The notes under the pieces: generated by a model
What the model was told of the DNA's origin: nothing
Seen by the model: the letters and a program-made list of their open reading frames with translations, nothing else
The model's database searches: none
Position numbers and translations under genes: made by a program
Virus record (IMG/VR): IMGVR_UViG_3300013426_000014
Coordinates: 32,001-96,000 of that record
Reading direction: 5' to 3' (one strand)
Source of the DNA: a virus
Taxonomy: Duplodnaviria > Caudoviricetes
DNA length: 64,000 nucleotides
In this document: piece after piece, positions 349 to 62,000 of the stretch
Numbering within the stretch: position 1 is the stretch's first letter
How the letters are laid out: each line of letters opens with the position of its first letter

Positions 349-981
349 ATGAATCAGAATATATTATACGTGGCGGCGGATTTCTCGATAGCAAAACCGG
401 CAATCAGTACATTATATGGTGACGAACTGAAATTCGCGGTGTTTCCGCAAAAGATAGATTCATTCACAGAGGACCGTCTCAGGACGGTTGGTGTCGAGGT
501 GACGAACAGGAACCTCGATCCGGTCGACACGAAAGATCCGGGACATATCATGGAGCTGACGAAACGTTACACGAACGCGGCGGATATGATAACAGCATAT
601 CTGATGTCATTCGACGCGGACAAAATCATATTCTCATCAGAAGGACTTTCGTACGCGTCGAAAGGAAGGATGACACTCGAGCTCGCCGGTGCCAAATACG
701 TGCTGTTGTCCGCGTTATGGTCCGCCGGCGTGACCGACATAATAACGTACAGTCCGACCACAATAAAGTCGACCGCCGGATGCGCCGGGAAGGGGAAGGG
801 AAAGGACGACATGATAGCGGCGTTCAAGGCACAGGATCCGAAGAATGAATTCATGCGCAGGATGAAAGATAACGACACGTTCTTCCGCAAGAAGACCGCG
901 TATATACACACAATAGACGACATCGTCGACTCATACTGATGCATGCGCACGATGGCTTCCAAACTTAACTTCGAGATCTAA
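349..981 (+). CDS. RuvC-like Holliday junction resolvase (TGA=Trp at 937)
   Basis: Motifs AADFS, SEGLSY, PTTIKS.AG...GK.DM and DDIVDSY(W). Read-through ends at TAA 979-981, which overlaps the next ATG. Alternative start at 322. Confidence 0.75.
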
Positions 982-3900
982 TGAATAGGACGGCCGGGCC
1001 GGGCGCGCGCCTGGTGGAAAAGATAAAGGAGACGAAATCCGGATATATCGTAAACCTCACGCCGGGCGGATCAAAAACGGAGGATTCAAAAGAGAAAAAA
1101 GGCGGCGATCTCGTCAAGGCAATGAAAGACAAGAAGAAATGCCTGGCGGATAACTGGCTTTCCGATTTCTGTGTGACACAATGGACGAGTATCAGGACAC
1201 GGCTTATCGACTCGATCAACAAGATCACTGTCAAGGCGAAGGAGGTGATCGACGATCTCATGTTCACGTTCACCGGTGACAATTTCATCAACCTTGTTGT
1301 CATAAGCCTGCTGACGACATGCGAGCAGCTTGTCAACGGGATAATCGTCCCGTTCGACCCAGTGTTCGTCGAGATATCATACAAATACAATGAGGTGCTC
1401 CGGAAATGAAGGGAATACAAGAACCTCAGAACAAACCCGGAGGATCCGGACGAGGATGAAAGGAAGACAAGGCTGGCCGAGATGACGGAGTATCTCGTCA
1501 GGCAGGGTGAAGGCGTGTGCTCCGCTATACTGGTGTATATGCTGATCGAACCTGTGTCGGAACTGCTCGACGTCATAAAAGAGATATTTAAGGCGGGACA
1601 GCATGAGTGGGAAAATGTCATCGGCAAGTTCCGCGACCTGTACGCGCTTATCAAAACAGTGTGCGACAGCATGCCCGGCAACAAATTCGCGAAATCACTG
1701 CTGGGAATACTGGCGATAATCATACCAGCGGCGGCGGCGCTGGCGTGCGGGATAGCGTGTGCGCGGGAATCGGACGACAAATTCAGAGCAAAGGCGAGGG
1801 AGTCACTGTCAGAGAACATGAAGGCGAACGGTCTGAAGGAAGACGCGGCTGTATCAGACCAGGCGGCAGACGCGGCAGAACGGTATAACCGCCTGTCGAT
1901 ACTGATAGAGGCGGCGCTGAAGAATCTTGACGGCGTGTCACTGTCATACAAGAAAGACGGTTCCGAATCAAAATCCGCGGATGACACGGTGTCGACAGAG
2001 ACGATATCGGTCTGCTACACGCCGAATGAAAGAATCGATTATGACACATCGGACAAGAAACGTTACGTGCTCGAGATCGGAAAAGACATCATCGCGAAAG
2101 GAGGAAGGCTGACGCCGCAACGGGGAGCGAAGATAAAACAGAACCAGAAAATCGGCGAATGCGAAGGAATCCCTATATTGTCGACCATATCCGGCCGCGT
2201 GACAAAACGGTATTATAACTACATCGTTATCGAGGACGACGCGGATGAAAACGAAATAATGAGCGAGATAAATTCGGCGCGGAACACCGCCGATATGACG
2301 GACAAGTTCTCGCCACTGATCGACCGGTTCAAAAAAATCGCGTACGCGGAGTCATATATCAAGGACCTCGCGGTATACTGCAGATTTCCGTCAATCGCCC
2401 TGCACAGCAAGAAAAAAGGAACATACCGTCTGACGCTGCTCGAGATATTGCTCGGCAAAAAACTCGACTCAAAAGACAGGTTCAAGAAAGATTACAACAA
2501 GGCGCTCGACAAGAAGATGACGTCACATCAGAAAAGCGTCAAACGGAAATGCGGTAAGTCGAAGATAAAGACGGCGGCGAACAACCAGAATATGGACGGC
2601 GTAACGAAGGACATAATGTCAGAGAAGGATGCCGGATACAGAATGGTTGTTGACATGTACAGGAACTGGATCCGGAGATCATCGAAATGATGCGCGGACA
2701 ACGCCGACACATACATGCTGCTGTCCGACTATATCGAGTTCGCCGCTGACAAATCGGTCATGTATGAGGAAGACAACCCGTTCGCGAAACGGCTGTTCGA
2801 CGCGCTCACGTCATTCGTCGACAAGCGGTCGCGCATAGAAAAGGTCGACAAGCAAAATTTGATCAAAAACTTTAACAAAAAATGCTCCGCCCTGCTGGGA
2901 AACAGGATGGGCAAAGGCATGAACTACTGGAACTATTTCTCGTCCAGGTTTCGGGCAAACTATTACGTGCAAGGAAGTTCCGGCGTTATCGGCGTATCGG
3001 ATGCGGCCGCGGCGGGAAACGAATCCGATTTCGATACACTGTACAGAAAGATGTACGACCACATAATGAACCTGCTGCAGTGCGGGACCGTCAAACGCGG
3101 GACGGAGGAGGTCAGCACGGAAGTAGACAGTATCGACGCATTCGTCAATCAGACTGATCAGAATGAGGAGATGTCAGACGCGGACAAAAAAATCATAGAG
3201 AAGCAGAACGACGCGAAGGCGATCGTCCGGTATTACATGCTCGCCCGGGGGGTCAAGGCGAGTAACAAGAAATCATCGTCGAAACAAACGCTGGCGGCGC
3301 AGACGCGGTCAGAGGAGCGGATATTAGACAAGATATTCAACGACGCGGTAAAATGGAGAGAGAAAGACGCCGGCCTGCTCGACATCGACAAGCTGAAGAA
3401 CGAGTTCAAGAAATTCATGTCGGTCGACTGCCCGTACAGGGGGACAATATACCTGAACAACATACCACACACGCATTACGTGTTTTCGACATCGATCGAG
3501 ACCGCCGGCGGCAGCAGTTTCATGACGGATCTTGAGGCGAACGGGCAATGCTCCGCGAAAACCGGGACAGACAACAGATCGATGCATTACTGGCTGCTGT
3601 ACTGCTCGATGGCGACGCTTGTCAACTGCATGATCCCGATCTATTGGGGAACCGGACTAAACATAATGGGCGTGCCGATACCGCTGCCGGTGATATACCT
3701 GCCAATATACTACCTGTCTGGATCATGCGGCGTGCTGTTCGGTCTCGGCATATGCGGCATCGCGGTATGGCCGATGATTGTGCTCATCAACAATACCGCA
3801 TATGACGCGACGATGCTGATACCGATAAACCTTGTCATCGATCTCGTCAGAAAGAAGCTCAACGATCTCGCAGACAAGTCGGTCGGCTCGCTGAAGTCAT

Positions 3901-5093
3901 TCGCGATGCCGTTCATAAAGGAATGCGATGATGAGATCGAGGAAATCGAGAAGCAGATCAAGGTCGTCGACACGGCGATAACAAAATATAAGCTGAACGC
4001 CGCCGGCGTCGACAACATGGCGGTCAGCGGCGCTGCAGTCGACCCAGCAGAAGGGTACGACACCGGTGGCAGTAGACGGAGCCGATACGGCGGGGCGGCG
4101 TCGACAGCCGGACTCGAGACCGGAACAGTCGACATGACGTATGACGAGGCGTATATAGAAGAAATCAGGAAAAAGGGTCAGATGACTGCGGAAGAGTGGA
4201 AGAAAGCAGAGGAAGAAACGAGAAAGGCATACAGGCAGATGACGGAACGCCAGAAAAAAACAGAACAATACGCGAAAGACACGGCCGGATCAGACAGTAA
4301 TGGATCATCGTCCACCGGATCAGACAAATCATATTCATCATCAATTGAATACAACCCGACTGGAACTGGATTTAACAATGTGATTGTCTGTCTCGACGCC
4401 GCGCACAACAAATACAGGTCAGGCAAGCGCACGCCGTGACTATGCACAAAAACACTGCCGACCGGTTACAAGACGAACGAGAGCTGGATGGACCTGTATG
4501 AATATAAGTGATCAAGGGAGGTCATACCTTACATAAAATCCGGGCTCGAACGTTACGGGGTAGAGGTGTACGAGGTGACGCCACAGGATACGGAAGGCGA
4601 CGCTTCACAGGACAATCTGACAAGAAGGAAGAATCGGATCGCGGCGAAAGTCACGCAATCGGGGAAACACGCGGTATACCTGTCGATACACGGAAACGCC
4701 GCCGGGTCGGGGACGAAATGGTACGGCGCGAACGGCTGGGCGATATACACGACAAAGGACCGGTCGAAAGACGCGAAAGGACAGGCAGAAGGGTCGAATA
4801 AACAGAATTCAGTGACGCTCGCGCAGACCCTGTTTGACGAGGCGGCGGAAATCCTGCCGCAATACGGGAAGACGATAAACCGGATAGGGGAACTCCGGAC
4901 AGCAAAGCACTGAGAGACAAACGACTTCGGCGCGGTGAACAACACATTCATACCGACAGTACTGACAGAAAACCTGTTTTACACCAATCCGGACGACTGC
5001 AAGTTCATGTCATCGGACACCGGCAAACGGGTCATCGCACAGATACATGTCAACGGTGTGCTGAAATTCATAAAGAAGATGAAATGGGTATAA
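981..5093 (+). CDS. ~1370-aa probable virion protein with C-terminal N-acetylmuramoyl-L-alanine amidase (Amidase_3) domain
   Basis: Four track ORFs (981, 1482, 2715, 4566) share one frame and are separated only by TGA (1407, 2688, 4437, 4509, 4911). The C-terminus has LDAAH..E..SIHGNAA..PTVLTEN amidase motifs. TAA at 5091. Confidence 0.8.
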
Positions 5094-5144: not shown

Positions 5145-6308
5145 TTACATATTCGCGAGCACGCTCGACAAATCGCCGAATATCGGAGCATTTGCTCCAT
5201 TAATCGGCTCGACATGCGGAAGGGCGGACGCGACATCCGGCAGTTCGATACCGGTGACAGTCGGAGCGGCAGGATTAACCCCACCCTGTGCGGGAGCGCC
5301 AAACTGAGGAGCAGATATACCCGAATTTACTTGTGGCTGAACAGGTTGAGCAGACTGTGCCGGCTGTTGAGACTGCGACCCGCCGAACTGTATTCCTGGA
5401 GTGGGTTGTTGCTGTCCGAATCCTCCAAACTGAATTCCCTGTGGAGCGGAGGACGACGCGGCGGAGATGGCCTGACCAAACGCCGGTCCAGATGGAAGCG
5501 TGCCAGTCTGGACGCAATTTCCGATAATACGCAATGTCTCGTCGACATGCTGCTGAACGGCGGCGCTCCATGGCTGGAAGTCATATGGAGCGAGATCCGG
5601 GGATGTCTTCGCGAGCCACTCCGCGAAGTACTGCTTGTCACTGCTGTCGGTCAGCACCTCCCACTGACCCGCCGCGTTCTGATAACGGATTCCGGACGTG
5701 TCACCAGCCTGACCGGTATAATCGAAGAATGAACTCTGATCATAGTTGTTGAAGTTCGACTGATAGACGACCTTCAATGCGAAGAAACGGCCATGAATTG
5801 GATCAAACGGATTCCTCGCGACCATACCGGCGATAGGTGGGGTCTGCTCCGCCATGAGCTTCTCGTAGATTTTCTTGCCGAACTTAAACACAAGAATCTT
5901 GTTGTTCAGCTCAGGATGCTGCGCGTCATTGATAATCTGGACAAGCGACGCATACACATTCCTTGTGGAAAGGCACTCCTTCGCAAGCTCCTCGAATTTG
6001 GCGTTGTTTGTGTTGATGAGCGACCAGTACATCTGGTTGACCGGCGACTCAGACTGACCGCCACTGCGCGGATCGTCAACATACATGCCGTTTTTCGTCA
6101 CCGGATTCTTCACCCACGCCTGAAGCTTCTGCATGATCGACTTTGACGGATTGCCGATCCACGGGACAAATCTGATAATCGCGTCATACACGCCATTCTT
6201 GCCATCCTTCGGGCTCGGCCTGTATTCATTCGTTGACATCCCGCCCTTCGCGGCCGGCTGATCGAGTTTCGGGTTAAGCAACCCGTTAATGAAATTTGTG
6301 TCGTACAT
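5145..6308 (-). CDS. gp32: T4 gp32-like single-stranded DNA-binding protein
   Basis: Motifs YRP..KDG.Y.AIIRF.P, ND..HPE.N.KI.VFKFGKKI.EK, NPFDP..G..F.LK..NYD.S.F, then a low-complexity tail. No TGA. Confidence 0.85.
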   Translation of the reverse strand: MYDTNFINGLLNPKLDQPAAKGGMSTNEYRPSPKDGKNGVYDAIIRFVPWIGNPSKSIMQKLQAWVKNPVTKNGMYVDDPRSGGQSESPVNQMYWSLINTNNAKFEELAKECLSTRNVYASLVQIINDAQHPELNNKILVFKFGKKIYEKLMAEQTPPIAGMVARNPFDPIHGRFFALKVVYQSNFNNYDQSSFFDYTGQAGDTSGIRYQNAAGQWEVLTDSSDKQYFAEWLAKTSPDLAPYDFQPWSAAVQQHVDETLRIIGNCVQTGTLPSGPAFGQAISAASSSAPQGIQFGGFGQQQPTPGIQFGGSQSQQPAQSAQPVQPQVNSGISAPQFGAPAQGGVNPAAPTVTGIELPDVASALPHVEPINGANAPIFGDLSSVLANM

Positions 6309-6434
6309 AAATCTAAAATTATTAAGACTCGTATTGAAGCACAACGCTTCTGTGAATATTATATTGAACGTTTCCGGTTTTTATTACAGAAATGCATAAA
6401 AAATAAATAACCACGAAACATAAAGAAAACAAAT

Positions 6435-7442
6435 ATGTTAAAGAACCTTTCCGACGCGACGGCGGCGGATCTTAAATGCCTGTCGTCAAACGAATGCGTC
6501 ATATATGAGAAACTCGACACATTCTACTTCAACGTCATGATCACAATATCCGGATGCACGGTATTAAAAAGCAATCACCGGATTATAGACGATGTCGACA
6601 TGGCGGTTAATTCGATGTATTCGGATATAACGGAATTTGTAAAGAACCACATCGTCCCGAACAAAGATAGGATAGCAGAAAAATACGGGGATATAATCGC
6701 CGGGATATTCTACTTCCCATGCGGCAAGCCGGGACGCACAGATTACACGGAAACGAGCATGCCGGGATCTTTCGTGATCGGGAACGTCAAAACAATGATG
6801 ACAGAAAAGCATGTTGACGACGTATCTGATCTCGCCACTATGACTGGTATGAGACCGTATCCGGTCATCGCGAGAATGCCGGCCGGCAAGTTCACGCCAG
6901 ATCTCATCAACATGACGCCAGCCGAAATCATTTTGAAAACCGGCGGAAAACCATTCAGCGGGCTGGACATAAACAAAACGGAAGGAATTGTAATCAAGTC
7001 GAAATGCAAGACGTTCCAGGCGTTGAACAACCGTTATGAGAAACCAGACGAATACCAGAAAAAAATCGACACATATGATGATTTCGTCAAACATCTTTGT
7101 GAATGGTATATCCTTTCAGATCACGAGACGCCGTCCGGTGATTACATAGAGAATGTCACGAATCTGTTCATTCAGTTCGCGAATGAAAGTCCATATATGA
7201 AAGAATATGCCGGGAATCCAGACGATCTCACGCCGTCGATCGGCACATATATACCGGATCCGGATTACTCGTTATTTCCGGACGAGACGGTAAAAACTAT
7301 ATGCAAATGTTCCAGGCTCGCCACCAATATATTCAAAATCATGCTACACGGACTACGTTACCGTAAAAACATAAGGAAATCATCATATATGACAACAGAT
7401 GATTTCCTTATATGGAACAAAATAGTCGACGACGTGTCCTAA
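6435..7442 (+). CDS. Hypothetical protein with degenerate RNA-ligase-like motifs
   Basis: YEKLD (motif I-like, Gly missing) and EGIVIK (motif IV-like). ATAAATA at 6403-6409. Confidence 0.45.
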   Translation: MLKNLSDATAADLKCLSSNECVIYEKLDTFYFNVMITISGCTVLKSNHRIIDDVDMAVNSMYSDITEFVKNHIVPNKDRIAEKYGDIIAGIFYFPCGKPGRTDYTETSMPGSFVIGNVKTMMTEKHVDDVSDLATMTGMRPYPVIARMPAGKFTPDLINMTPAEIILKTGGKPFSGLDINKTEGIVIKSKCKTFQALNNRYEKPDEYQKKIDTYDDFVKHLCEWYILSDHETPSGDYIENVTNLFIQFANESPYMKEYAGNPDDLTPSIGTYIPDPDYSLFPDETVKTICKCSRLATNIFKIMLHGLRYRKNIRKSSYMTTDDFLIWNKIVDDVS

Positions 7443-8131
7443 CAATTCTTCTGCTTTGTCGGAGGAATCCAATCGATCGACGGATACCCGTGATATCCCT
7501 TCTGCCAGACGTACCACGCGTAGCACACGGCGCCGCCGTACTGGTTTTCCTTCTCAAAGTCGCCGTTCATCGCGCACTGCATCCGTTCTGAACAGACGAA
7601 CACCCACAATGGCGGATTCTTCATGAACAGCTTGTACCTGTCAATCGTCTCAAGGAACTGTATCTTCAGGAACATCATGACATATGCTCCGTCGTCGACG
7701 ATGTCGAGTGCGTGACGGACGCAATCGTTCGACATGCCGTATGGAGGATTCGTAACAATCGACGCGTGAGGCGGAATCACATAATCAGGCGGGACGAGAC
7801 CGTCACTGACCCTGCCGACTTTGAAAAAGTCGACCGACCTGTCAATACGGATAATACCCGGCGCCAAGGTCCATTCACGAGGAACAAGATCTGATGCGAT
7901 GACTTCAAAATTCTTTTCCGCGAGAATATTCGCGATATGTCCTTTACCACAGCACGGCTCATATACAGGATAATTTCGAAGATTATTATATATACCATGT
8001 TTAGACAGCATATTCAGAAGACCGTTTACAGCGACAGGCGGCGTCGCATAAAAATCGTTTTTCTCCCTTTCCAGTTCCGGACTGTGATTAGACGCGCCCA
8101 GCGCGCCATATACTGATCTCTTATTTCCCAT
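7439..8131 (-). CDS. DNA amino-methyltransferase (N6-adenine/N4-cytosine)
   Basis: DFYATPP, EPCCGKG (SAM binding), IVTNPPY (catalytic), YAWYVW. Confidence 0.85.
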   Translation of the reverse strand: MGNKRSVYGALGASNHSPELEREKNDFYATPPVAVNGLLNMLSKHGIYNNLRNYPVYEPCCGKGHIANILAEKNFEVIASDLVPREWTLAPGIIRIDRSVDFFKVGRVSDGLVPPDYVIPPHASIVTNPPYGMSNDCVRHALDIVDDGAYVMMFLKIQFLETIDRYKLFMKNPPLWVFVCSERMQCAMNGDFEKENQYGGAVCYAWYVWQKGYHGYPSIDWIPPTKQKNC

Positions 8132-8170
8132 ATAAAATAATATATGGCATTATATTACATTTTTATAAAA

Positions 8171-8202
8171 TAAAAGGCAGTTCAAAAAATGAACTACCTT
8201 TT
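8171..8202. terminator. Intrinsic terminator
   Basis: AAAAGGCAGTTC-AAAAAAT-GAACTACCTTTT hairpin. Confidence 0.55.
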
Positions 8203-8222
8203 TATATCAGATATTATATCTG

Positions 8223-8882
8223 TTATTCAGTCTTGTCTGCGGAAATGACAGTGCCTTCCAACTGAGAATCATCCGCAAGAACAGTAGTCTGCTCCCATTT
8301 CTCGCGTTCCTCTTCCGTCAGATATCGAAGTTTGAATCCGGCGCACGCCGCGGCCCAAACCTCCTGTTTCTTCTTGATCTCGAGCTGTTGCTTGTCTGTG
8401 TCCTTCTTCAAATCATCAATCGTCTCGAGAATCTTATTATACTCCTCGTCAATCGACTGCATTTTCTTCGCCGAGGCAAGACCGACGCCGCACGGCTTCA
8501 TCATCAACGTATACAAGAAACCGAGGCATCCGTAATCGATGACGAGATCCTGTTCCTTCTTCTCGAACTCCTTCAAAAAGTCGTTGACAAATTTGTCAAA
8601 CTTCACGACGCCGATCCACTGGTCCTTCTCCCATGCGGCGAACTTTTCATTCCATGTCTTAAGAAATTTGGCGACACGAACCGCGTTACGGGAATCAGCG
8701 ATAGTGAATGTGCGGGTCTGGAACGTCTTTACCGCGTTTTCCCAATCCTCTTTGGTGTTCTTGACAAACTCATCGTCAACCGTCTCGTCTATGAGCTCGC
8801 TGACACCGACATTTTCTTTGTTGTATTGAGAAATGAGTTCTTTCCTCTGCTCCTCGACCGATTTGACATTATTCTCTGCCAT
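8223..8882 (-). CDS. Hypothetical protein
   Basis: 219-aa ORF, ATG start, TAA stop, upstream CATATAAT box. Confidence 0.7.
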   Translation of the reverse strand: MAENNVKSVEEQRKELISQYNKENVGVSELIDETVDDEFVKNTKEDWENAVKTFQTRTFTIADSRNAVRVAKFLKTWNEKFAAWEKDQWIGVVKFDKFVNDFLKEFEKKEQDLVIDYGCLGFLYTLMMKPCGVGLASAKKMQSIDEEYNKILETIDDLKKDTDKQQLEIKKKQEVWAAACAGFKLRYLTEEEREKWEQTTVLADDSQLEGTVISADKTE

Positions 8883-8940
8883 TGAATATCAATTTAATTT
8901 ATACATAAATTATATGTGTACCGGAACATTTTTTTTAATA

Positions 8941-8966
8941 AAAAAGACAGGCAAAACCTGTCTTTT
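8941..8966. terminator. Intrinsic terminator
   Basis: AAAAAGACAGG-CAAAA-CCTGTCTTTT. Confidence 0.65.
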
Positions 8967-8990
8967 CATGATAAATCATTGTACGAAACT

Positions 8991-9254
8991 TTATTCTGTC
9001 TCCGGTGTATCATCTTTCCGAACTAGCTTGAAACCGGCAAGCGGTTCAAGATCACAACCGCAAATAATATTAAGATCCTGTTCAGGGTCAAACGATTCCG
9101 GAAGTCTTCCGCCCTCGGCCTGTGGCGGGCACTCGTCCCTTCACACAATCCTGCCGTTATATGAGATCCAGATGTCGCCTTTCATAAAACCCGGAAGCTC
9201 ATTCCAATTCCGCATGAATATATTGCGTCAAACCTTCTTAGTCTGCTTTATCAT
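8991..9254 (-). CDS. Small hypothetical protein (87 aa, two TGA=Trp), absent from the ORF track
   Basis: MIKQTKKV(W)RNIFMRNWNELPGFMKGDIWISYNGRIV(W)RDECPP...ETE-TAA. It fills the gap between 9271 and the terminator at 8941. Confidence 0.6.
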
Positions 9255-9270
9255 GACAAACCCTTTGTTT

Positions 9271-9744
9271 TTACATAATATTTAACCGCGCGCAAATCTC
9301 TGGAACAAATCTAATACCCAATGTAACAGCTGCCGTGATTACAGCAATCCATAACGCCGTACGGCGGATCCATCTGCTGCCGAAACGGACGGGTGTGAAC
9401 ACAAGCAGCACACCATATGACAACGTCATCTTACCGTCCTCGTCCGTGAAGTTGTTAAACTCCGGCACGAGATACTCGCTCCATCCGAGATCCGTCATAT
9501 AGTCACATATCGGCTTTATCTTGAAATACACCATCCGCTCCTGGTTATAATCATACTTCTGTAGATCCTCCTCTTTGCAGTTGAACTGGACATACACGAT
9601 ATTCCGAAGCCAGTTCAACTTCAATCCGTAACGATTGAACATCGACGCCGGATCATCCATCTCCCGTTTCATCTCCCGACGGAACCTGAAAAAATTGACG
9701 ACGTCCTTGACGCCCTGTACGAAACCCCAATCAGTTAACGACAT
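9271..9744 (-). CDS. Hypothetical membrane protein
   Basis: C-terminal hydrophobic helix ALWIAVITAAVTLGI. Coupled to the end of the sigma gene. Confidence 0.65.
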   Translation of the reverse strand: MSLTDWGFVQGVKDVVNFFRFRREMKREMDDPASMFNRYGLKLNWLRNIVYVQFNCKEEDLQKYDYNQERMVYFKIKPICDYMTDLGWSEYLVPEFNNFTDEDGKMTLSYGVLLVFTPVRFGSRWIRRTALWIAVITAAVTLGIRFVPEICARLNIM

Positions 9745-10493
9745 ACCGATTCCTTTTTCTTTTTGCCGCATTCCGGATAATACAAGCGGTATGACTCATA
9801 TAATGTGGAGTACTTGTCTTTTATCACGTCCTGCAGTTTGATTTTACCCTTGTACAGCCAATTGACGACAGTCGTCATCGGAATCTTATTCTCCGCCGCG
9901 ATCTGGTCGATTTTCTTCTTCCGCACAAGCTGCTCCTTCAGCACGAGCCTGTAATTGTCAGGCAAGTAGTCGATGCACTTAATCGACGCGTCCGCCATAT
10001 CATCAATAAGCGTATCTTTATTGATATCGACGAACTTGCCGCCGTCATACAGGCTGTCATATTCCTCTGTATATGATACAGATTCCGAAGACGAATCATT
10101 TCTCGACAGCGTGTCATGCGACGTCTCGATATTGCCATACGAGCTGTCGAACATATCAGAAAGATCGACACTTACCTGCCGTCTCCTTTTCGACGCGAGC
10201 TCCTGCATGTAAAGCAGTGAGTTATTCCTGGCGATACCATACGCCCACGAGCTGAACTGACCACGCTCGCCGTCAAACTGCGAATGTTTTGTCCAGATAT
10301 CCTCAAACGTACGCAGTAGCACCTCATCTGTTGCGTCGTTATCCTGTGTAATCTTGTATATATGTTTTCTGAGTCCCCATGTCATCCTTTCGATAAGGGG
10401 ACGGAACGTGTCGCCGGTCGGATTATCGATAAACGATCTGGAAAGTGCAGTAATATTGCGTTCTTTCCTCTTCATTGTCTTTCCCTGTATCAT
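9735..10493 (-). CDS. ECF-type sigma-70 family RNA polymerase sigma factor
   Basis: Region 2 (DEVL..TF..IW....FD..RGQFSSWAYGIARN) and region 4 HTH (LP..YR.VL...QIA....IPMTTV.NWLYKGK). No TGA. Confidence 0.85.
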   Translation of the reverse strand: MIQGKTMKRKERNITALSRSFIDNPTGDTFRPLIERMTWGLRKHIYKITQDNDATDEVLLRTFEDIWTKHSQFDGERGQFSSWAYGIARNNSLLYMQELASKRRRQVSVDLSDMFDSSYGNIETSHDTLSRNDSSSESVSYTEEYDSLYDGGKFVDINKDTLIDDMADASIKCIDYLPDNYRLVLKEQLVRKKKIDQIAAENKIPMTTVVNWLYKGKIKLQDVIKDKYSTLYESYRLYYPECGKKKKESVCR

Positions 10494-10494
10494 A

Positions 10495-10785
10495 TTAGTC
10501 TATTTTTACGAGATAAATGTTCTGACTGTTCTCTATGTTGTGCATAAGATCCTTCACGTTCCTGTACGGCAGACGTGACAGACGCTGTATCAACTCATTC
10601 GCCGCCGCGATATACATCCTGCCGCCGCAATTGTCGACCGAGTCGAGCAGGTTTTTTACATCGGCGTACGGAAGGGCGTCACACACAGTATGAATGTCTT
10701 TCACAAACCTGTCAGTCAGGCGGAACCTAACGTCATAATCGACGGTCGCGGGGATCGGCATCTTATTTTCTTTATCCATATTCAT
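10495..10785 (-). CDS. Hypothetical protein with internal LPY..VK duplication
   Basis: 96-aa ORF, first gene after a TAnnTTTG promoter. Confidence 0.65.
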   Translation of the reverse strand: MNMDKENKMPIPATVDYDVRFRLTDRFVKDIHTVCDALPYADVKNLLDSVDNCGGRMYIAAANELIQRLSRLPYRNVKDLMHNIENSQNIYLVKID

Positions 10786-10805
10786 ATATCCTTATTTTGA
10801 TGACA

Positions 10806-10829
10806 CAAATATAAAAGAAAATTTTCAAA
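10806..10829 (-). promoter_or_regulatory. Bacteroidetes-type housekeeping promoter (TTTG ... TAnnTTTG)
   Basis: The minus strand reads TTTGAAAATTTTCTTTTATATTTG upstream of the operon carrying the ECF sigma. TATATTTG also occurs at 18508-18515 and 46097-46104. Confidence 0.55.
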
Positions 10830-10862
10830 TATGAAAATATCGGCGAAAAAATTTTGACAGGT

Positions 10863-12647: not shown

Positions 12648-12648
12648 G

Positions 12649-15073
<2,425 letters not shown>

Positions 15074-16074: not shown

Positions 16075-17646
<1,572 letters not shown>

Positions 17647-17657
17647 ACCGTATTGAT

Positions 17658-18449: not shown

Positions 18450-18534
18450 ATGATTAACAATTATATTATTGACAACTTATTTATTATGTCATACAATTAC
18501 AACGGCACAAATATAATCGTTTTCGTCATAATAT

Positions 18535-18562
18535 AAAAAACACCGGAAAAAATTCCGGTGTT
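18535..18562. terminator. Intrinsic terminator
   Basis: AAAAAACACCGGAA-AAAA-TTCCGGTGTT. Confidence 0.6.
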
Positions 18563-18584
18563 CATCTATTCAATCAAATCTGAC

Positions 18585-38266: not shown

Positions 38267-38298
38267 AAGACAACATCGAAAAGTAAAAACAGACCGTT

Positions 38299-39279: not shown

Positions 39280-39299
39280 CCGATTCAAAGCGATAAGTC

Positions 39300-40286: not shown

Positions 40287-40295
40287 CCGGATAAT

Positions 40296-51305: not shown

Positions 51306-52919
51306 TTAGTTCTTTAAGGTTGGCAAAGATTCTTTAACAAAATTCAGTAATTCATTCTCCGACACTGCAGGGTCGTCATCATATGAAACATATCTTTTAT
51401 TATCGACGCGCAGGCCAGAATAATACGTCTTCATCGCGTTCCTGAGCGCGTCATAGAATGGGCCCGAACATACAACCGACCCCGGAGAGTTCAACCATTC
51501 CGGAACAATGCCGTATATCGCAATCGGACCGTCATGTCATGAGTTCTGCACATACCGGAACAGCGTGACGACCTGTATCCTGGACGGGTCATCCGGTCAG
51601 AACGTGATCCTATCACACTGCGCCGGATGATATATCCGGCCTGCGCCGCCGGTAATGATGTAATCCATCGTCTTGTATTTGACTGTAAACAATGTCTTGT
51701 TCGCGGATCGTCCCGGTCATTTCAGTACATCGCCGTCCGTCGAGAACGACTCGACTGAATACGGCACCTTCATACGGTCAAAAATTCTGTATAATGTGTC
51801 AGGCATAAAATGATCATCGAACTCACCAGCGTCGGCCTTTTTCATATACGAGTCATACGTGGTCAGAATGTCACCAATCGACGCGCCGGCCAGCTTCGCC
51901 TTACGCAGCCATGTACGTCACCCGTTATTGTATATGGTATTAGTCTTTTCTCATTCTATGTAAACATCAATATTGTCACGCATCCGCGGAAAATATCTCG
52001 CGGCGGCGTCATCATTGGCGTGTTGAAAGATATAACTACCGACGCATTCGCATACGGCGGTTTCAACGGTAGTAGTCTTCTTCGCCGTCGGCGCCATGTA
52101 GTTCATCTTCCTGTACGACCCCGCATCTATCACGTCATTCCTGGTCAGGCGAAAATCATTGCCGGTCGCGATCTGCATCGCATCAAACTCACCAATAAGC
52201 GCGTCGGAACTCATCCACGCGGCGGCGGCTTCTTTCATCGCACACATGATGCCGTCACACAGTTCAATCACCTCCCGTACATGGCGCGACAATACAGAGT
52301 TAACTGCTTGAACCGGCTTATATGAGTGGAATATGTCACCGAAAACACTGGATAGAAGATTATCCTTGTATACGACAGGTTTGGATTCATACACGACGGC
52401 GTTACCGACCCGCAACCGCACCTTAACGTATCCGCTGACATAAACATTCAACGTATCGTCATCAATGACCGCGTCGTCGACATGATTCAATATTGACAGC
52501 ACATTACCGGACTCCGGCGTGAACGGGGCGAGCCGCCTACTGTACACGGCGTCCGGAAATTTCTTGAGACCGGCGACAATGGCGGGATATGTCGATACAT
52601 TATAATACAGGCCTCAACGCATCGTGTCTTTGACACCGTCCGGAACCGGAAGCGTTCTCGTGTCGCCGTTCCGCCTTTCGCCGAAATAGTATTCCTCGGC
52701 CGCGGCGTCCGGCCTGATCAGATCCGGGTTCTTTATCAAATCGGCGGGACTGAACGACCAAAATTGGCATCATTTCTGAGAATCCAGGCATCACTCAATG
52801 TGTCCGAAATAATCCTGATCAGACAATGTTTCCGTCCAGTCTTCGACATCCCCGTCGGAAAGGTTGAAATCCTCATATAACGGCGTTCTGTATCTTGATT
52901 GTATCATCAGTGCATTCAT
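51306..52919 (-). CDS. Acidic-leader family protein (537 aa, 8 TGA)
   Basis: LYEDFNLSDGDVEDWTETLSD leader. One continuous frame joins ORFs 51951 and 51306 through TGAs only. Confidence 0.72.
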
Positions 52920-52923
52920 ATTT

Positions 52924-54276
52924 TTACAGAATCCGTATCAATCCGGATTCAGCTTTAACATCCATACCCGTGACGGTCAGAACAATCCTGCCGGTAGCAG
53001 GCGCGATGTTCTGCTTATATACAGAATACTTACCGGTTTTTATCTTAACAGGCTCGCTTAAATCAATCACGCCCGCTGACGTTACATGAAACAGGTAATT
53101 ATCATCTATAACGACATTCCCGTCATTGTCGACGTATTCAAGTGAGAACGGAACCGTCCCGTCATTGTCGCCGTCAAGTCACGCGCCAGATCCTGGATCC
53201 GTTATGACGAACGAATCTGCTGTTATCTCATTGTTCCCGTTCGGCACGACACGCACAGATGGCATCACACCGAACCTGTACTTGTCCGAATTTACATATA
53301 TTTCCGGCTGTGTGAAACCGGTCATGCCGTCCGGTATATTCCAGATGTACTCACCCGAATAACAATACAGACCGTACGCTATTTTTATGACGTCGCCTGA
53401 ATCCTGAACAAAATCCAGACACAGCGAATACGGCTCCGCTGTGTCCGCTTTGAAATCCCATCCGATCCTCATCGCCGCCCCCGCCGAATACGGCATGACA
53501 GCATTACCGGCAACGACTGGATCTGTGATGGCGGCGGAAATGTTAACAGACTCCGCTGGCATGACATTCAGACCAATCGACTCCATGACACAATCCGCCG
53601 GTATCGCGGTCGTCGGGTCGAACACCGGCTGGTATGTCTCGACGCCCAATGTAAAAGTCATCTTGTTCTCACGTTTCACATTGTCATACGTCAGATCCAT
53701 AGTCGGCTCATATGAATACTGTTCAGGAAAACCGACCGTACAGCCGACCCTGACACCAGAAAACATCACGTAAAATGACCGATTCTTATAGAACTCGTCA
53801 CGTATCGCCTGCTCTATCTTCATGACGGACAAAAAATCCGTGTCGGCGGTCAAAACAGTACAGTCAAACGTCATATTCAGCGGAATCGACTCCATCATCG
53901 CCTTGTACGTCGTCAGCACGCCCCTGTCATTCCTCGTGAACGTCCCCATCACCGGCGAAGTGCACGACCCGGCGTCGATCTGAGATCCTTTATAGACGAT
54001 AATACCTTTCGGATATGAGTTGAAATCGGTATCCATCCTTCGCGATCCGAAACATTCCCTGCCGAAGAACGTATAATTGTCCTGCAGGAATCTCTCGTTA
54101 TTCGCGTGGGAAAAACCATAATATCACGGAACGGTCACGTCCTGCATCGTATCGTTATCCCACACCTGCTTGTACACTATGGCATTGTTGAGCAGGTTGA
54201 GCAGACCGGATATAACGGACCTGACAAGAACGTCATCCGTGTTGTGTATGTTGTACAACGAAGATTGCTCCGACAT
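52924..54276 (-). CDS. Tail sheath stabiliser / terminator (T4 gp15-like) with C-terminal extension (2 TGA)
   Basis: VP(W)YY....ERFLQD, PKG, IPL.M.F, QA...FY, F...VETY.P. Confidence 0.6.
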
Positions 54277-55901: not shown

Positions 55902-57684
55902 TTATTCCGTATTCTTGCTTATGCGTGACGGGTCGTATCCTGTCCGGCGACACCTTCTTTATCCTCGCTGTCTTCGAATCAAGGATATACACAGCGGTTA
56001 CAACACCTGACGCGTCCCTGACTATCTTCGTCACCACGCCGTCATATTTAATATCCGGATCATTAAGTCCCGTCGCGTGGACCTTTGTCCCGACATGAAT
56101 ATAGGATGCATTCGACGGGTCATTCTTCTTCTGCTGCAGATCATCCGTGACCGGAAGCAGCTCGTACTGATACCCCATCATGTTCAACGTCCCTACCGCG
56201 CCGTTACCGGTATTCATGACGGACGGATAACCGTAATTCTCATTTGTTGCAGTCTTTCGATCTCTCGTCACCGGAGGGGTGGACGGATCATTCTTTATTT
56301 CATCATAAAAAATCTCATTCATGAAATCGTCATACGCCTCCGACGCGATCGCGGCGGCTTTCTTCGCCGCGTTTACGGCCAATTTATACCGTCTTTTAAG
56401 TGACGTCTTAAATTTTCTCGTAAAATCATTATCAGCAAATCCGTCATTACCGAATATGTAGTCTATCGGAAAAGATCTGCCGGCCGACAGTTTTTTCCCG
56501 CCGTTGGGATTTAACGGATCTGGAACATATACGGCGTTTTTATAAGTATATACGATTTCACTCTTGTCGATCCACCCCATATCCCCGATATTCAAAAGAC
56601 GGGGCAAATCATCTAATTTATACTTTCGCGGAAATTTCAGTCATATCATATACGGTCTGTTCCGCCTAAGCGTTTCAGATATCATTTTTCCCTTATCCTT
56701 CATCGTTTTATACACCGCGTGATGGAGCTTGTTTGAAATCCGTTGTTCATCACCATAAATCCTGTCAAGCGAATCATACACATGCCGGTATAAACTATTC
56801 AAATACGCTTTTACTTCGGTGACATTCGTCATATAAACAAAATCGGTGAAACTTCTCTGGCACAATGTCCGTTTGTTCATGTCAAAATCCGAACGAGTGT
56901 CAATCACACAATACATACCGTCCAATTGTAACACGGGACCTGTATCACGGAAAAAACCTTTTTTCATCCGCATGGCTGCTGTATTCGCCAATTGATTATC
57001 ATATACATGCATAAGTTCATGCATGAACGTCTGTTTTGATATATTCATCGGAACGCCGGGACAAACCAACCGCTCAATTGTTTTTGATGCAAAGTCAAAG
57101 CAAAAATCACTTAAGAACAAGGTCAGCTGCTGCTGAATATCATCGGCATTCTTAAGTTCGAGAGAACTCTGCGAAATCGCGCCATCCGCGGCCGCGGCAT
57201 GAGTGGAGGTATATCTTCTCGCAACATCCGCGACGCGCATGACATCGCTGTCTGACAAACCGGGTGAAAATTTCAACGGAATGACAAGCAATGGGTCGGG
57301 GAAAAAGCCAGACATAAACGTCTCGCCGTGCATTGTCTTTTCAAATTCCGGGCAGTCAATGTCGATAAACGGATCATACACGTTTATTTCATCCGGCACG
57401 GATTTATCCAATTTTGAATTGTTGCACAATCAGCGAAGATCACACAAAAAATGGTTCGCGTCAGCGATTGACATAACAGATCGATTTCCAGAATTCAAAA
57501 TAGCGAGAACTTTCCCGTCAAAAGCAGCAGGATTAAGTTCAAACCGTTTTTTTATGGCATCGCCGACGCAATCGACAAGCAAGTCAAACAATTCATTGAT
57601 CTGGTCATTAACAACTGAACCAAAATGATGATTAGATTCCGTAAGTAATATTTTATGATGTCGCATTATATTCATATCTGACAT
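55873..57684 (-). CDS. HExxH zincin-like protein, distant family member 3, with C-terminal extension (603 aa, 2 TGA)
   Basis: Three track ORFs in one frame. MHELMHVYD ... FVYM....EVKA. Confidence 0.65.
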
Positions 57685-58974
57685 TTATACAAATGACATA
57701 ACCTTCATCTCCATTGGATAGTCATTCGGATTATACAAAATGACGGACGGTATCAGATTCCTGACATAATCGCCGTCCGCCGCGGCGACGTCAACGAATA
57801 AAGGTCCAATCGGTATTCACATGTCGTTGTCGTTCACATATGTCGCGTAACCATACATGCCCATCACCTTTTTTGATACATCTTTACGGTCAACGCGCAC
57901 CGCCACCTCTGCCGGCGATGATTCGGTTGTGTTCACCGCGGCGTACCATTCATCATCCACCGGATCTGGTCTCATCGGGTCATCTCACTCGTCGTCCGCC
58001 GGTTTTTCGGGCATAGTGTCATGTCACCCGTCGGCTGGATCAAAGGTCCCGTCATCCGGGACGCAATACGAGCAAACCGGCTCATCCGGGAAGCGTCACT
58101 TCATCGCGGTGAACTCTTCCTTTGTCCTTCAGTCGATGTCGACATCAGTAATCTCCCGCCTGAAAATGTCCGGGACGTTCGCGGTCAACTCCTCATATGT
58201 GAACACCCTGTCCTTCACGAACGCGAGTTTGACGGATCTGTCGACTGCAGAAATCGACGAATCGTTATACTTCGGGTAGACTGGCTTTATGACGAGCCCG
58301 CGGAACGCGCCGTTTTTATACTTGACCGCCGGGACGTAAACACCGTCCATCTCTGTCAGTAACGCGCGGCATCGCTCGCCGGGAACGACGGTCCCGTCCT
58401 CTATGTACGCGTCGTCGGAAAGCGCGAAATTCACGCCGTCGACATAATACTCGAAACCGTTGTCATTACCGACGAACATTATATAGTCGTCGACGAAATA
58501 CACGGTCACCGGCACGCACGCGGCGGTCAGTGCGGCATTGACGGACTTCTCTATGTCGTTGGGGTATCCAGCCGACACGGAAAGCGGGACGATACAGACC
58601 CTGCCGTTCCTCCTGTACTTAACGGTGAACCTGACCTTCGCGTCATATTTCCAGTCCTTCTCGCTGGTCGCGCACTCTGGTATGCGTCCGAAACCGCGGG
58701 TCATTCTCGACTCGCCGGACGTCACGCCGCGGATCACCGTGACGGAGTTCGGCTGCAACACCGTCGATGAGCTGTCGAACGATGTCACCGGCACATTGAG
58801 ATCAGAAAGGTCAACGACGGTCGTGTTCCCGTCAGGATCTGTTATGGTGAGCTTGTCGTCGTCAACGGTGAAACTGCCGTCGCTTGACGACGACGCGCCG
58901 GGGCAGGTTATGCCGGCATATATGTACTGCTTCGCAGGATTGTCGTAATATCTTTTGAACAGGTCGGTTGCCAT
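57685..58974 (-). CDS. Hypothetical virion protein (429 aa, 5 TGA)
   Basis: The frame continues from 58129 to TAA at 57685, abutting the next ATG. ATAAATA at 59016-59022. Confidence 0.7.
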
Positions 58975-60230: not shown

Positions 60231-60236
60231 TACGTT

Positions 60237-62000
60237 ATGAAGGATATTTCAAGGTTCGTCCAGATATCGGATGTTTGCCTGCTTGAGTACAGGATAAACA
60301 AGGAATACGACAACGTCTACTCGCCGGACGAGGAGGGTATGCTCCGGCCGGCGGACGGGTCGAGAGTGTTCACTTTGCCGGATGACTCCGTCTTGTTCGC
60401 GGACGCGAGATACGCACCCAACACCGCGTTGCCGACGGATAAATCGGGCAAGGAATGATGCAACCCGCTCGATGGGACGTCGCCGTCGCTTTCCGACTTC
60501 ACAGATTCATACTCGTCGATATTCGACCCGCTGCCGTCGGCCGACATCCCGTCGGAGTCGGTGCCCGCTGACAGGATAAGGATATATGTCGTCAACGGAT
60601 ACTCTTTCTCCAATACGTACGGCTTCTGGATCAAGGCGTGGCTCGACAGGGAGACGAAGGATCAGGATAACGCCGCGACGAGATCAGATGCGGTACTTCT
60701 GTCGTGAACATACAACAGGGCGAACGCAAAGTGGAAATACGTGACGCGGCCGTTGTTCTTCAGTAACCGCGTGTACGACAAGTACATCGAGCTCGAGTTC
60801 CCGTCCGCACAGTTCCTGACACATTCGAACTCGTCCGCGCTGGCGGCGGCGCTCGGCGTCAAGGAAGGAGCCGGGTCGCTCAGGCTGGCGTACGCCGACC
60901 TGTATCAGGACGTGTACACCGAACATTCAGACGTCATGACAGGCGGGTTCGCGGCGTTGTCCGGGAAGGCGGCGCCGAAGGCGCGGACCGGTGAGTTCGG
61001 GACAGGCAACGCCGTGTCGACTTCGCTTCCACTCGCCGCTAACACCGACCGGTTCAACCTGTATATCGGTGAGAGCCCGAAAGGCGGCTACATCGAGTAT
61101 TACGGCACATGGGACGGGAAGGCGCTGACACCGGCGGTCGTGAACAGATTCAATGTCACAATACCACTTTACACTCCATCTAAGTCCGCCTATGACGCGG
61201 CGAAGGCGTCAGCAGGGCTCGATGAGTGGCAGACGTGGTACGTGCAACACGGTCTGAAGGTGACGCTTGTTAACCAGGACGGCGAGAACGTCGTGCTGGA
61301 CAATATTGTCAACACTCAGTATTTCGGCGACGGAAGCCCGACCCGGTTCTTCTATAGGCCGATACCGTCCAGGCTGACTGAGTCCGGCATAAAGCTGTCG
61401 GACGACTGGATCATGACCGTCGAATACGAGTGCTCGCTCGTCAATGTCGTCGACGGGTCGAAGGTGACGAGGACCGGATCGATGTCCACCGACCTTTCGA
61501 AATACATGTCTGACACAGGGTCGGATCTTGGATTTTCCGACACGTTCACATACAAGATATTCAACAGGATCAATAACGTGAAGCAGGAGCTGACGACCGC
61601 CGGGAACGGCCCGTCCGTCAAGTACACGAAGGTTTTTTACGACAGCACGACCGTCAACCTGTCGGGAAACACCGGCCTGTACACGATGACGCTGGCGAAC
61701 AGCCCGAAGAACTACAAGTTCACGTTCACGCAGGATGATTCCGACGGCGCGACCAAATACATGAACTTCACAGGGTCGTATTATAAGTTGTACTCCCGCG
61801 ATAAGGACGGAAAGGACATATATATCGACGCGACGTACAGCGACAACATGAACACGATAATGGGAGAGCTCGAGTTTTATATACCGCAAACAATGATAAA
61901 GCGGCTTAAGGCAGTGCCGGTTGAGAACAGGTTTATGGATATCGTCGTCGTCAATCAGGACAACACCATATCGACGCTGTACGAGTTCACGTACAGTTAG
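60237..62000 (+). CDS. Hypothetical structural protein (587 aa, 2 TGA)
   Basis: ORFs 60237 and 60741 are in one frame, joined through TGA 60456 and 60705. Confidence 0.7.

Follow-up and report, generated by a model that had tools for sequence, protein, structure and literature searches.

Gut phages that read TGA as tryptophan (code 4) have been described in the Jade, Sapphire and Agate clades. Two Jade phages carry a 'code-change module' that comprises a suppressor tRNA, tryptophanyl-tRNA synthetase (TrpRS) and RF1; only 35% of the code-4 genomes yielded a TGA suppressor, and non-canonical tRNAs were suspected (Borges et al., bioRxiv 10.1101/2021.08.26.457843). The phage described here resembles these clades in its in-frame TGA read as Trp, its phage-borne TGA suppressor tRNA, its TGA codons in structural, packaging and lysis genes and in several modules across a large genome, and its replication genes largely without TGA. 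As in those clades, its kin vary in TGA use and in the type of suppressor tRNA; in relative L008 the aligned Trp positions are free of TGA, and relative G001 carries a tRNA(CUA). It differs in that its suppressor tRNA is split by an intron, in its genome of at least 269 kb, which exceeds the quoted clade means, and in its GC content of 50%; unlike in the Jade phages, no RF1 plus TrpRS module was found in its record. The nearest deposited phages are the Lak megaphages of Prevotella (~540 kb), with portal proteins 42–44% identical over 80% of their length. Like Lak, this is a T4-like jumbo phage of the animal gut that departs from the standard code and encodes many tRNAs; its relatives derive from metagenomes of animal guts. 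However, the kinship is distant, the Lak genome is twice as large, and the codon reassigned in Lak is TAG (Borges et al., bioRxiv 10.1101/2021.08.26.457843) and not TGA.

We analysed a window of 64,000 nucleotides that covers bases 32001–96000 of the 269-kb record, for which CheckV estimates a completeness of 87%. The phage very probably decodes TGA as Trp by means of an intron-split tRNA(UCA), with genes of the replication and major capsid protein (MCP) type kept code-neutral. Genes were called using an in-house codon-model caller (not Prodigal) with TGA set to sense. Sixty called genes lie wholly inside the window, including a few doubtful short calls (8991–9254 and 57451–57648), and 29 of the 60 contain in-frame TGA. 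The Trp-type codons in called genes of the window number 70 TGA and 202 TGG, so that the original prediction, which counted about 70 TGAs joining fragments into about 30 genes by hand, was close to the recount. Across the whole record, 252 TGAs fall within 79 of 244 genes, about a third.

Reading TGA as sense raised coding density from 0.818 to 0.881, lowered the gene number from 360 to 244 and increased the mean length from 204 to 325 amino acids, the gain expected from the original prediction; with the same caller, controls that treated TAG or TAA as sense gave densities of 0.819 and 0.807 and no gain. Of 164 code-11 open reading frames that ended at TGA, 128 kept a positive coding score over 30 or more codons past it; the same was true of 17 of 149 that ended at TAA and of 6 of 46 at TAG. 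A second version of this continuation test gave 85/130, 16/141 and 5/36, respectively. Homology of conserved genes runs on across the TGAs, with one continuous stretch each for the Portal_T4 and PHROG matches, and 39 of the 70 TGAs in the window have an aligned homologous position in tblastn matches to relatives. The earlier statement that all complete genes end in TAA or TAG is true by construction once TGA is read through; its non-trivial form is supported by the finding that 25 of the 252 TGAs in the record lie near a TAA or TAG (within 15 codons), so that the genes that could still stop at TGA are about one in ten at most.

Individual genes of the window illustrate this pattern. A RuvC-like resolvase (349–981, plus strand) has one TGA at codon 197 (937–939), 13 codons before its TAA; its match to PHROG 159 spans residues 72–208 and therefore crosses the TGA, which faces W in G001. 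The adjacent 1,370-amino-acid protein (981–5093, plus strand) with a C-terminal Amidase_3 domain (Pfam match, residues 1136–1361) has 5 TGA and 14 TGG codons and ends in TAA; all five TGA positions are covered by tblastn matches in G001, and in L006 and L008 one of the five lies opposite W or TGA. It is followed by a TGA-free block of eight larger genes (5145–14808) ending in TAA or TAG, among them genes for SSB, a DNA methyltransferase, a sigma-like factor, a helicase and an NAD-dependent ligase; the roughly 40 Trp codons noted there before, all TGG, proved to be exactly 40 TGG and 0 TGA. A MoxR-like AAA ATPase (18585–20540, minus strand; Pfam AAA_5, PHROG 1297) has TGA at codons 383 and 407, both of which face W or TGA in three of three relatives (G001, L006 and L008). 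The T4 gp20-type portal (20818–22680, minus strand) has TGA at codons 176 (22153–22155) and 288 (21817–21819), both inside a single Portal_T4 stretch in Pfam (residues 103–528). In the head-proximal gene at 22706–23353 (minus strand), which has a weak match to PHROG 429 (DNA end protector), codon 186 is TGA here and in L006, and W in G001, L003, L005 and L008. The single TGA of a family 2 glycosyltransferase (23353–25482, minus strand; Pfam Glycos_transf_2), at codon 443, faces W in G001.

The endolysin, an N-acetylmuramoyl-L-alanine amidase (26089–26748, plus strand; PHROG 435), has 4 TGA and 1 TGG codons. In an alignment with its amidase paralogue the residues opposite the TGAs are W, Y, W and W, and in relatives the same positions hold W, TGA, Y or F. 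A UvsX/RecA-like recombinase (27258–28508, minus strand; PHROG 97, Pfam RecA) has one TGA at codon 31, where L008 has W, L006 has F and G001 has T. The block at 28593–35778 (minus strand), which encodes an HD phosphohydrolase, a 5'-3' exonuclease, a clamp loader and a 650-amino-acid protein of unknown function, is nearly free of TGA, the sole one being the last codon before the TAA of 32999–33742. The large terminase is split (36948–42407, plus strand): N-terminal (36948–37517) and C-terminal (40296–42407) pieces, each with a PHROG terminase match and 4 TGAs, flank a TGA-free HNH endonuclease gene (37523–38266) and, after it, two genes of unknown function with 4 and 2 TGAs. This region also matches HNH, Terminase_6N and, weakly, Intein_splicing, and in G001 the TGA codons of the terminase line up with W or Y. 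A gp55-like late sigma factor (45666–46073, minus strand; PHROG 234, E = 2e-21, residues 20–110), whose residues 23–114 align to T4 gp55 (7D7C chain F), has TGA at codon 85 (45819–45821), inside the conserved domain; this codon is W in G001, L003, L004 and L005.

Genes of unknown function differ widely in TGA load. A 1,359-amino-acid gene (47108–51187, minus strand) has no TGA and 5 TGG codons, and the adjacent 551-amino-acid gene (51306–52961, minus strand), with 9 TGA and 5 TGG, carries more TGAs than any other gene in the window; the latter is called from coding potential alone (score 89), with no aligned homologue and no family match. A 429-amino-acid gene (57685–58974, minus strand) has 5 TGAs, two of them at positions that are W in G001, and a 587-amino-acid gene (60237–62000, plus strand) has 2 TGA and 7 TGG codons and ends in TAG. 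The last gene of the window (63686–64000, plus strand) is TGA-free and runs past the window end. The TGA-bearing genes of the record also include those for giant surface proteins with BACON and LRR domains and many unknowns.

We next consider which residue TGA encodes. In a Codetta-type likelihood analysis of 137 aligned TGA positions, using relatives without TGA at aligned Trp positions, the facing residues were W (67), Y (22), F (11) and G (3), and the log-likelihood of W exceeded that of Tyr by 174 nats and that of Gly by 469 nats. Both portal TGA columns (codons 176 and 288) hold W in 119 of 119 homologues. When the recoded relative L006 was aligned, 7 TGA codons of the phage faced TGA and 3 faced TGG, and 15 of its TGG codons faced TGA: the two codons exchange freely between these phages. 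The original prediction favoured Trp over Gly from internal comparisons, which we found quoted exactly: NGW-AIYTTK with TGG at 4737–4739 and TGw-SAYTTK with TGA at 26431–26433 in the amidases, and DDE-TGA (57985–57987) and DDE-TGG (57946–57948) in a local repeat of the 429-amino-acid gene. The Trp positions that it regarded as restored, in the portal, the MoxR-like ATPase, the RuvC-like resolvase and the gene at 22706–23353, likewise face W (or TGA) in homologues. Were homologues absent, glycine (code 25) would predict open frames identical to those of code 4; with them, glycine occupies 3 of 137 positions, and no relative has a GGN codon opposite a TGA in the portal region. We count glycine as refuted, together with selenocysteine, pseudogene breaks and assembly errors, given that identical TGA positions reappear in the independent assembly L006 and that about 250 TGAs are spread over 79 genes with an unbroken coding signal. 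Aligned homologues thus strongly support Trp, rather than Gly, as the meaning of TGA.

The original prediction saw no suppressor tRNA in the window, and this is correct; the record holds one elsewhere, hidden by an intron. Using ARAGORN with introns allowed, we located a tRNA(UCA) gene at 206860–207225 of the genome (L010 5860–6225), which starts 110,860 bases past the window end. It consists of a 33-nt exon 1 ending in CUU, a 293-nt intron ending in G and a 40-nt exon 2 that begins with CAAAACC. The intron lies between anticodon bases 34 and 35, and the UCA anticodon would therefore exist only after splicing; it is because the intron splits the anticodon that this gene was missed earlier. Joining the exons yields a tRNA of 73 nt that matches the intron-less tRNA(UCA) of the close relatives L052 and L053 at 73 of 73 positions, and the blastn alignment is interrupted exactly at 206892|207186. 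These comparisons establish the split gene and its exact predicted splice junction. The precursor adopts a cloverleaf fold (z = −4.2). L050 and L051 have the same tRNA(UCA) with a 333-nt intron at the identical site, and a 318-kb recoded relative has a homologous tRNA with a homologous intron of ~215 nt. The gene is one of 33 tRNAs in the phage array, and tRNA-Trp(CCA) is also carried. A wider search of the genome had been proposed for tRNA-Trp(UCA), RF1 and TrpRS, among others; it returned the tRNA, and six-frame translation of the 269-kb record (87% complete) gave no match to PF00472, PF03462 or PF00579 for RF1/RF2 and TrpRS.

The 293-nt intron appears to be group-I-like from its pattern of base pairing. 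In an alignment of four sequences, 96.4% of cells are paired and compensatory change is seen at 13 pairs, a result that 0 of 500 shuffles attained. The helices follow group I order, with compensatory changes in P2, P3, P6, P8 and P9; P4, P5 and P7 are invariant in the four sequences, which allow a P7 with a bulged A, and P1 has only 3 bp (CUU/GAG). The junction has the group I hallmarks: a U precedes the 5' splice site, the intron ends in G (...GUAAG) and the joined tRNA is regular. Known group I introns in tRNA anticodon loops share with it the insertion site (CUU / intron...g / next base), the U before the 5' site and the terminal G, the small size without an open reading frame (215–333 nt in the phage versions) and a presence that varies among close relatives. 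Unlike them, the phage intron has no match to Rfam Intron_gpI, up to E = 10, for either the phage intron or the shorter L054 version, and its splicing is predicted; the Rfam group I seed includes no bacterial intron (Williams 2020). It also differs in sitting in an opal-suppressor tRNA(UCA), so that splicing would create an anticodon that reads a stop codon.

TGA is distributed unevenly among genes. Replication-type genes have 2 TGA and 61 TGG codons, compared with 17 TGA and 47 TGG in virion, packaging and lysis genes (Fisher p = 2.8e-4). Among genes with at least four Trp codons, 53 have no TGA, where 24.9 were expected and the maximum in 5000 simulations was 41. The late bias claimed in the original prediction is thus significant both by gene class, in the Fisher test that it suggested, and by over-dispersion; 'strongly' overstated it, as internal TGA is lacking from the genes for the MCP, tail sheath and prohead protease, and one each is present in UvsX and the gp55-like late sigma factor, neither of them a classic late gene. 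Since the MCP, sheath and protease are late and have no internal TGA, timing alone does not account for the distribution. A T4-late-like upstream motif, GATAAATA, was weakly linked to TGA genes (12/23 versus 67/221, p = 0.058). The replication-gene blocks and the tRNA-array region are TGA-free and almost never use TGA as a terminator either; genes that avoid TGA in both roles, those for the MCP, sheath and protease included, therefore read alike under code 11 and code 4. A division into two groups fits these observations better: genes needed early or in bulk are code-neutral, and the remainder may use TGA.

From the TGA-free gene set, a code switch during infection can reasonably be inferred. 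In the most probable course, the early, code-neutral genes would be translated by unmodified host machinery; the tRNA array would then be transcribed, and the suppressor tRNA would mature, be charged by host TrpRS and presumably outcompete RF2. TGA-bearing genes would then be made full-length, including the late sigma factor and hence late transcription. The same gene set is the one basis for proposing that the host reads TGA as stop. A Bacteroidales host is only a lead, suggested by the BACON domain and by Prevotella Lak phages as nearest deposited relatives.

The bias could also have arisen without any regulatory switch, which we regard as possible but less probable. TGA and TGG would be near-neutral synonyms once the phage has its suppressor tRNA, TGA would be purged where incomplete suppression is costly, in highly expressed or early-needed genes, and the late bias would be a by-product of drift and of selection for efficient translation. 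The absence of internal TGA from the late proteins of greatest abundance (MCP, tail sheath and prohead protease) speaks for this, as do the fast turnover of TGA and TGG among close relatives, the TGAs in UvsX and the late sigma factor, outside the classic late genes, and the weak link to the late-promoter-like motif. The replication blocks and tRNA-array region speak against it, being TGA-free and rarely TGA-ended, as expected if they are read before the code changes; moreover, this explanation is compatible with a switch and denies only that the bias has a regulatory origin. Far less likely still is a host that itself uses code 4 or in some other way reads TGA as Trp, so that the phage merely matches it and no switch takes place. 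Scanning bacterial genomes with the endolysin identified no host, which leaves room for one, but under such a host nothing would favour the existence of over 100 TGA-free genes or a strong unevenness from gene to gene, and the phage carries its own tRNA(UCA) beside tRNA-Trp(CCA). Known code-4 bacteria have a GC content far below the 50% of this phage. The nearest deposited phages, Lak of Prevotella, and the giant surface protein with a BACON domain also argue against it, and standard-code Firmicutes or Bacteroidetes hosts are predicted for code-4 phages (Borges et al., bioRxiv 10.1101/2021.08.26.457843).

As TGA-as-Trp was already described for gut phages, this is a further well-documented case, here in a 50%-GC jumbo phage of Lak kinship. 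Three features go beyond the published picture, so far as we surveyed it: the split suppressor, abundant virion proteins that avoid TGA, and TGA in a late sigma factor. An intron-split anticodon offers a concrete reason why standard tools find suppressors in only about one-third of code-4 phages, and tRNA searches in annotation pipelines should allow introns. The genome needs annotation under table 4; otherwise ~80 genes look fragmented. That the most abundant virion proteins avoid TGA makes 'late genes are recoded' too simple a rule. Because the late sigma factor needs read-through of TGA, it becomes a testable question whether the code change is tied to late transcription. Returning to the code switch, we speculate, with little confidence, that it could form a cascade with two gates. 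One would be the splicing of the intron, whose rate or conditions (for example GTP or Mg2+ levels, or a phage factor) would determine the moment at which TGA can be read; the other would be the TGA in the conserved domain of the gp55-like late sigma factor, which would hold back late transcription until the suppressor is available. If true, recoding would set the timing of the lytic programme at two levels, translation and transcription.

We compared gene calls for the whole record with TGA read as a stop and as a sense codon, using a simple caller that combines our own codon log-odds model, trained on long code-11 open reading frames, with weighted interval scheduling. The standard code returned 360 calls with a mean length of 204 amino acids and a genome coverage of 81.8%. 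Reading TGA as sense gave 244 calls with a mean length of 325 amino acids and a coverage of 88.1%, the gain in coding density expected from the original prediction that TGA is recoded to tryptophan, although here the translation tables were mimicked by our caller. Treating TAG or TAA as sense gave no coding gain for the whole genome with the same caller. Code-11 calls ending in TGA could be extended by 30 or more codons while keeping a positive coding score in 128 of 164 cases, compared with 17 of 149 calls ended by TAA and 6 of 46 ended by TAG; a stricter run-on test gave 85 of 130, 16 of 141 and 5 of 36, respectively. Within the window, 70 in-frame TGAs are distributed over 29 of 60 genes, against 202 TGG codons, and the eight genes at window positions 5145–14808 contain 40 TGG and no TGA. 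The hand counts and sequence motifs reported with the prediction were exact to the base when rechecked.

The record is 269,322 bp long, linear by IMG/VR class and 87% complete as estimated by CheckV. Encoded proteins include a T4 gp20-type portal and a T4-type large terminase, a major head protein, prohead protease and tail sheath, together with UvsX, a clamp loader and a gp55-like late sigma factor; the record also carries 33 tRNA genes at 202–222 kb. Among deposited phages, the closest are Prevotella Lak megaphages (portal identity 42–44%). Gut metagenome assemblies contain much closer uncultured relatives, in part on contigs of 180–364 kb; relatives L050–L055 come from pig and other animal-gut samples. 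The GC content of the whole record is about 50%, which is unusual for a genome in which TGA encodes tryptophan. Relatives L001, L003, L006, L008, L059 and L062 have 27–39% GC, and the shift holds even against L006, which shares 83% portal protein identity, a large change of composition inside one clade. The portal is adjoined by a gene group at window positions 16075–20540 that comprises a MoxR-like AAA ATPase followed by genes whose counterparts in L006–L008 are called DUF2201_N and VWA-like; its order is kept in L006 and L007.

To identify the amino acid, all genes were searched by tblastn, with X at each TGA, against G001, a whole related genome of 364 kb, and a number of related loci, and the subject codons were read. 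Aligned homologues exist for only 39 of the 70 window TGAs. The 137 aligned TGA positions face tryptophan 67 times, tyrosine 22, phenylalanine 11 and glycine 3. In relatives without TGA at aligned tryptophan positions, TGA of our phage faces TGG most often and then TAT, TAC, TTT and TTC, and this profile is that of its own TGG codons. A Codetta-type likelihood, with substitution frequencies derived from the same alignments, favoured tryptophan, with tyrosine 174 nats and glycine 469 nats behind. A single Pfam Portal_T4 match spans both portal TGAs, and both columns are tryptophan in 119 of 119 full-length homologues, as are the six TGG columns. The choice of tryptophan over glycine made in the original prediction is upheld by these columns and by the likelihood. 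Recoding extends to the 318-kb relative L006, whose portal can be translated only when TGA is read as tryptophan, and TGA and TGG swap freely between the two genomes. Code 25, selenocysteine and sequencing error are each excluded as explanations of the in-frame TGAs by the homologue columns, the likelihood and L006.

Genome-wide, 252 in-frame TGAs stand against 841 TGG codons, and they are spread very unevenly: no TGA occurs in 53 genes that have four or more tryptophan codons, where 24.9 such genes are expected and none of 5,000 simulations exceeded 41. TGA codons are concentrated between 68 and 170 kb, where they form 35% of tryptophan codons; this region includes the terminase and giant BACON and BspA-type leucine-rich repeat proteins of 2,414–2,834 amino acids with 12–20 TGAs each. 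Hardly any TGA occurs in the replication blocks or in the 170–257 kb stretch, which includes the tRNA array. Among about 60 genes classified by PHROG and Pfam names, those for replication, recombination and transcription have 2 TGA and 61 TGG, compared with 17 TGA and 47 TGG in those for virion, packaging and lysis (Fisher's P = 2.8 × 10−4). The predicted bias towards late genes stands as a contrast between classes, but it does not extend to every gene. The tail sheath, major head protein and prohead protease have no internal TGA. UvsX has one, at which the facing residue is tryptophan in relative L008, phenylalanine in L006 and threonine in G001; the gp55-like late sigma factor also has one, at codon 85, where relatives have tryptophan, and this falls in the stretch that aligns to T4 gp55 (7D7C), N-terminal of the conserved AYITQ motif. 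Because major virion genes are free of TGA while UvsX and the late sigma factor contain it, the pattern is one of a code-neutral set and a TGA-using set of genes, not a clean split between early and late.

Genes free of internal TGA also shun it as a terminator. Of the in-frame TGAs, 227 lie further than 15 codons from where the gene ends, and only 25 are found within 15 codons of TAA or TAG. The sole TGA of the RuvC-like gene, 13 codons ahead of its TAA, is tryptophan in G001. TGA stands directly before the stop five times, compared with 2 of 841 TGG codons (P = 0.009), in the genes at genome positions 26277–28049, 64999–65742 (window 32999–33742), 205264–205674, 230339–230602 and 252613–253446. 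Such codons may be left over from genes that once ended at TGA, or may form tandem stops effective under either code. The bases after and before in-frame TGA show no difference from those after and before TGG (P = 0.14 and 0.15, respectively). The T4 late promoter word TATAAATA is scarce in the genome, and the most over-represented word upstream of genes is the similar 8-mer GATAAATA. It is found 19–60 nt upstream of 23 gene starts, TGA-bearing and TGA-free alike, for example at window 22707–22714 upstream of the portal and 315–322 upstream of RuvC, and is weakly associated with TGA genes (P = 0.058).

The most heavily recoded genes encode a 2,628-amino-acid protein with N-terminal BACON domains (20 TGAs) and a 2,834-amino-acid protein with BspA-type leucine-rich repeats (12 TGAs), listed in that order at genome 158862–166748 and 141095–149599. 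PHROGs assigned no function to the giant proteins; these two probably serve as surface proteins that bind the host. Two pieces make up the large terminase (window 36948–37517 and 40296–42407), separated by a TGA-free HNH endonuclease gene (37523–38266) and two unknown genes. Residues 125–161 of the second piece weakly match Intein_splicing, just ahead of its Terminase_6N domain.

The original prediction noted no suppressor tRNA in the window, and plain ARAGORN, run without introns, indeed found no UCA tRNA there or in the whole genome. When introns were allowed, the search of the rest of the genome revealed one tRNA(UCA) at 206860–207225, outside the window, split by a 293-nt intron after anticodon base 34. 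Its 5′ half begins 10 nt downstream of a tRNA-Met, its halves pair as a 7-bp acceptor stem with discriminator G, and the whole precursor folds to a cloverleaf around the insert (z = −4.2). A tRNA-Cys call by plain ARAGORN at 207154–207225 is false and unsupported by Rfam, and an additional low-threshold 'tca' call at 187846–187934 lies inside a gene and was taken as noise. Directly downstream of the suppressor, a conserved 264-amino-acid DUF7873 protein is encoded at 207259–208053 (6259–7053 of L010, the piece of the record that carries the suppressor); this gene lies beside tRNA arrays in all relatives fetched, with or without a tRNA(UCA) found nearby. We used it to fetch relatives for comparison. 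L052 and L053 (about 85–89% DNA identity) have an unsplit 73-nt tRNA(UCA) at the same place that matches the joined exons at 73 of 73 bases, and aligning them with our genome gives a break precisely at 206892/207186. In L050 and L051 this tRNA is interrupted at the same site by a 333-nt intron, and the recoded 318-kb relative carries a homologous one of about 215 nt without the long first hairpin. Exact-pattern scans of viral contigs for the tRNA 5′ half and the intron core gave no matches, and a DNA search of G001 for the tRNA and intron gave just generic T-arm matches. Among phage tRNAs the suppressor is most like the phage tRNA-Trp(CCA), but barely (68% versus 66%), which is too weak to show descent from it.

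The last base of exon 1 is U and that of the intron is G, and the insertion site of the suppressor intron, CUU/...g/, matches the one used by the classic tRNA-Leu(UAA) group I intron (Williams 2020). Its helices follow group I order: a GAG guide faces the exon CUU, P3 encloses P4–P6, and a P7 containing a bulged A can be modelled, which creates a P3/P7 pseudoknot. In an alignment of four sequences from three lineages, pairing holds in 96.4% of cells, with compensatory changes at 13 pairs; 0 of 500 shuffles reached the observed level and slid controls gave at most 3. Rfam group I models did not match the intron; the Rfam seed contains no bacterial intron (Williams 2020). Given drawn helices and compensatory pairs but no Rfam match, we call it group-I-like, and consider a true group I intron more likely than not. 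The intron is dispensable for recoding, because close relatives are without it, and resembles a mobile element that has landed in the suppressor by chance. ARAGORN with introns also reported candidate inserts of 407–615 nt in tRNA-Lys(UUU), tRNA-Leu(UAA) and tRNA-Phe(GAA) genes of relatives (G001 82225–82778 and 297439–297947; L059 4055–4719; L062 4118–4598; L054 4583–5285), which have no blastn similarity to the suppressor intron; intron insertion into tRNA anticodon loops may be frequent in the clade. Literature searches turned up no description of a phage suppressor tRNA split by an intron, which is no proof of absence.

Extending the search for RF1 and TrpRS beyond the window, we found no RF1, RF2 or TrpRS gene in the record, itself 87% complete by CheckV, and therefore the 'code-change module' of the Jade type (Borges et al., bioRxiv 10.1101/2021.08.26.457843) is absent here. 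A scan of bacterial genomes with the endolysin gave two distant MAG matches and no host lead; the BACON domain and Lak kinship point weakly to a Bacteroidota host. The best argument that the host uses the standard code is internal, as a host reading TGA as tryptophan would not select for more than 100 TGA-free genes.

Borges et al. described TGA- and TAG-recoded gut phages in which the recoded codon is concentrated in structural and lysis genes, located in several modules of large genomes, and is used variably by replication genes, suppressor tRNAs were detected in just 35% of code-4 genomes, and genetic codes are mixed within clades. Such mixing is also seen here: relative L008 is without TGA at aligned tryptophan positions, and our phage and L006 are recoded. 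Two relatives of 31–35% GC carry a tRNA(CUA) amber suppressor (G001, IMG/VR 3300031992_000003, at 93489–93560; L062 at 6227–6304). Despite this tRNA, G001 gives no TAG or TGA read-through signal, and its TAG-terminated open reading frames are scarce (13, compared with 239 ended by TAA); this state may be a stage before or after recoding. Since the same features were described by Borges et al., the recoding of TGA to tryptophan is itself already known and the present case belongs to that type. What this phage adds to the published picture is a suppressor split by an intron, major virion proteins free of TGA, and a TGA inside the late sigma factor.
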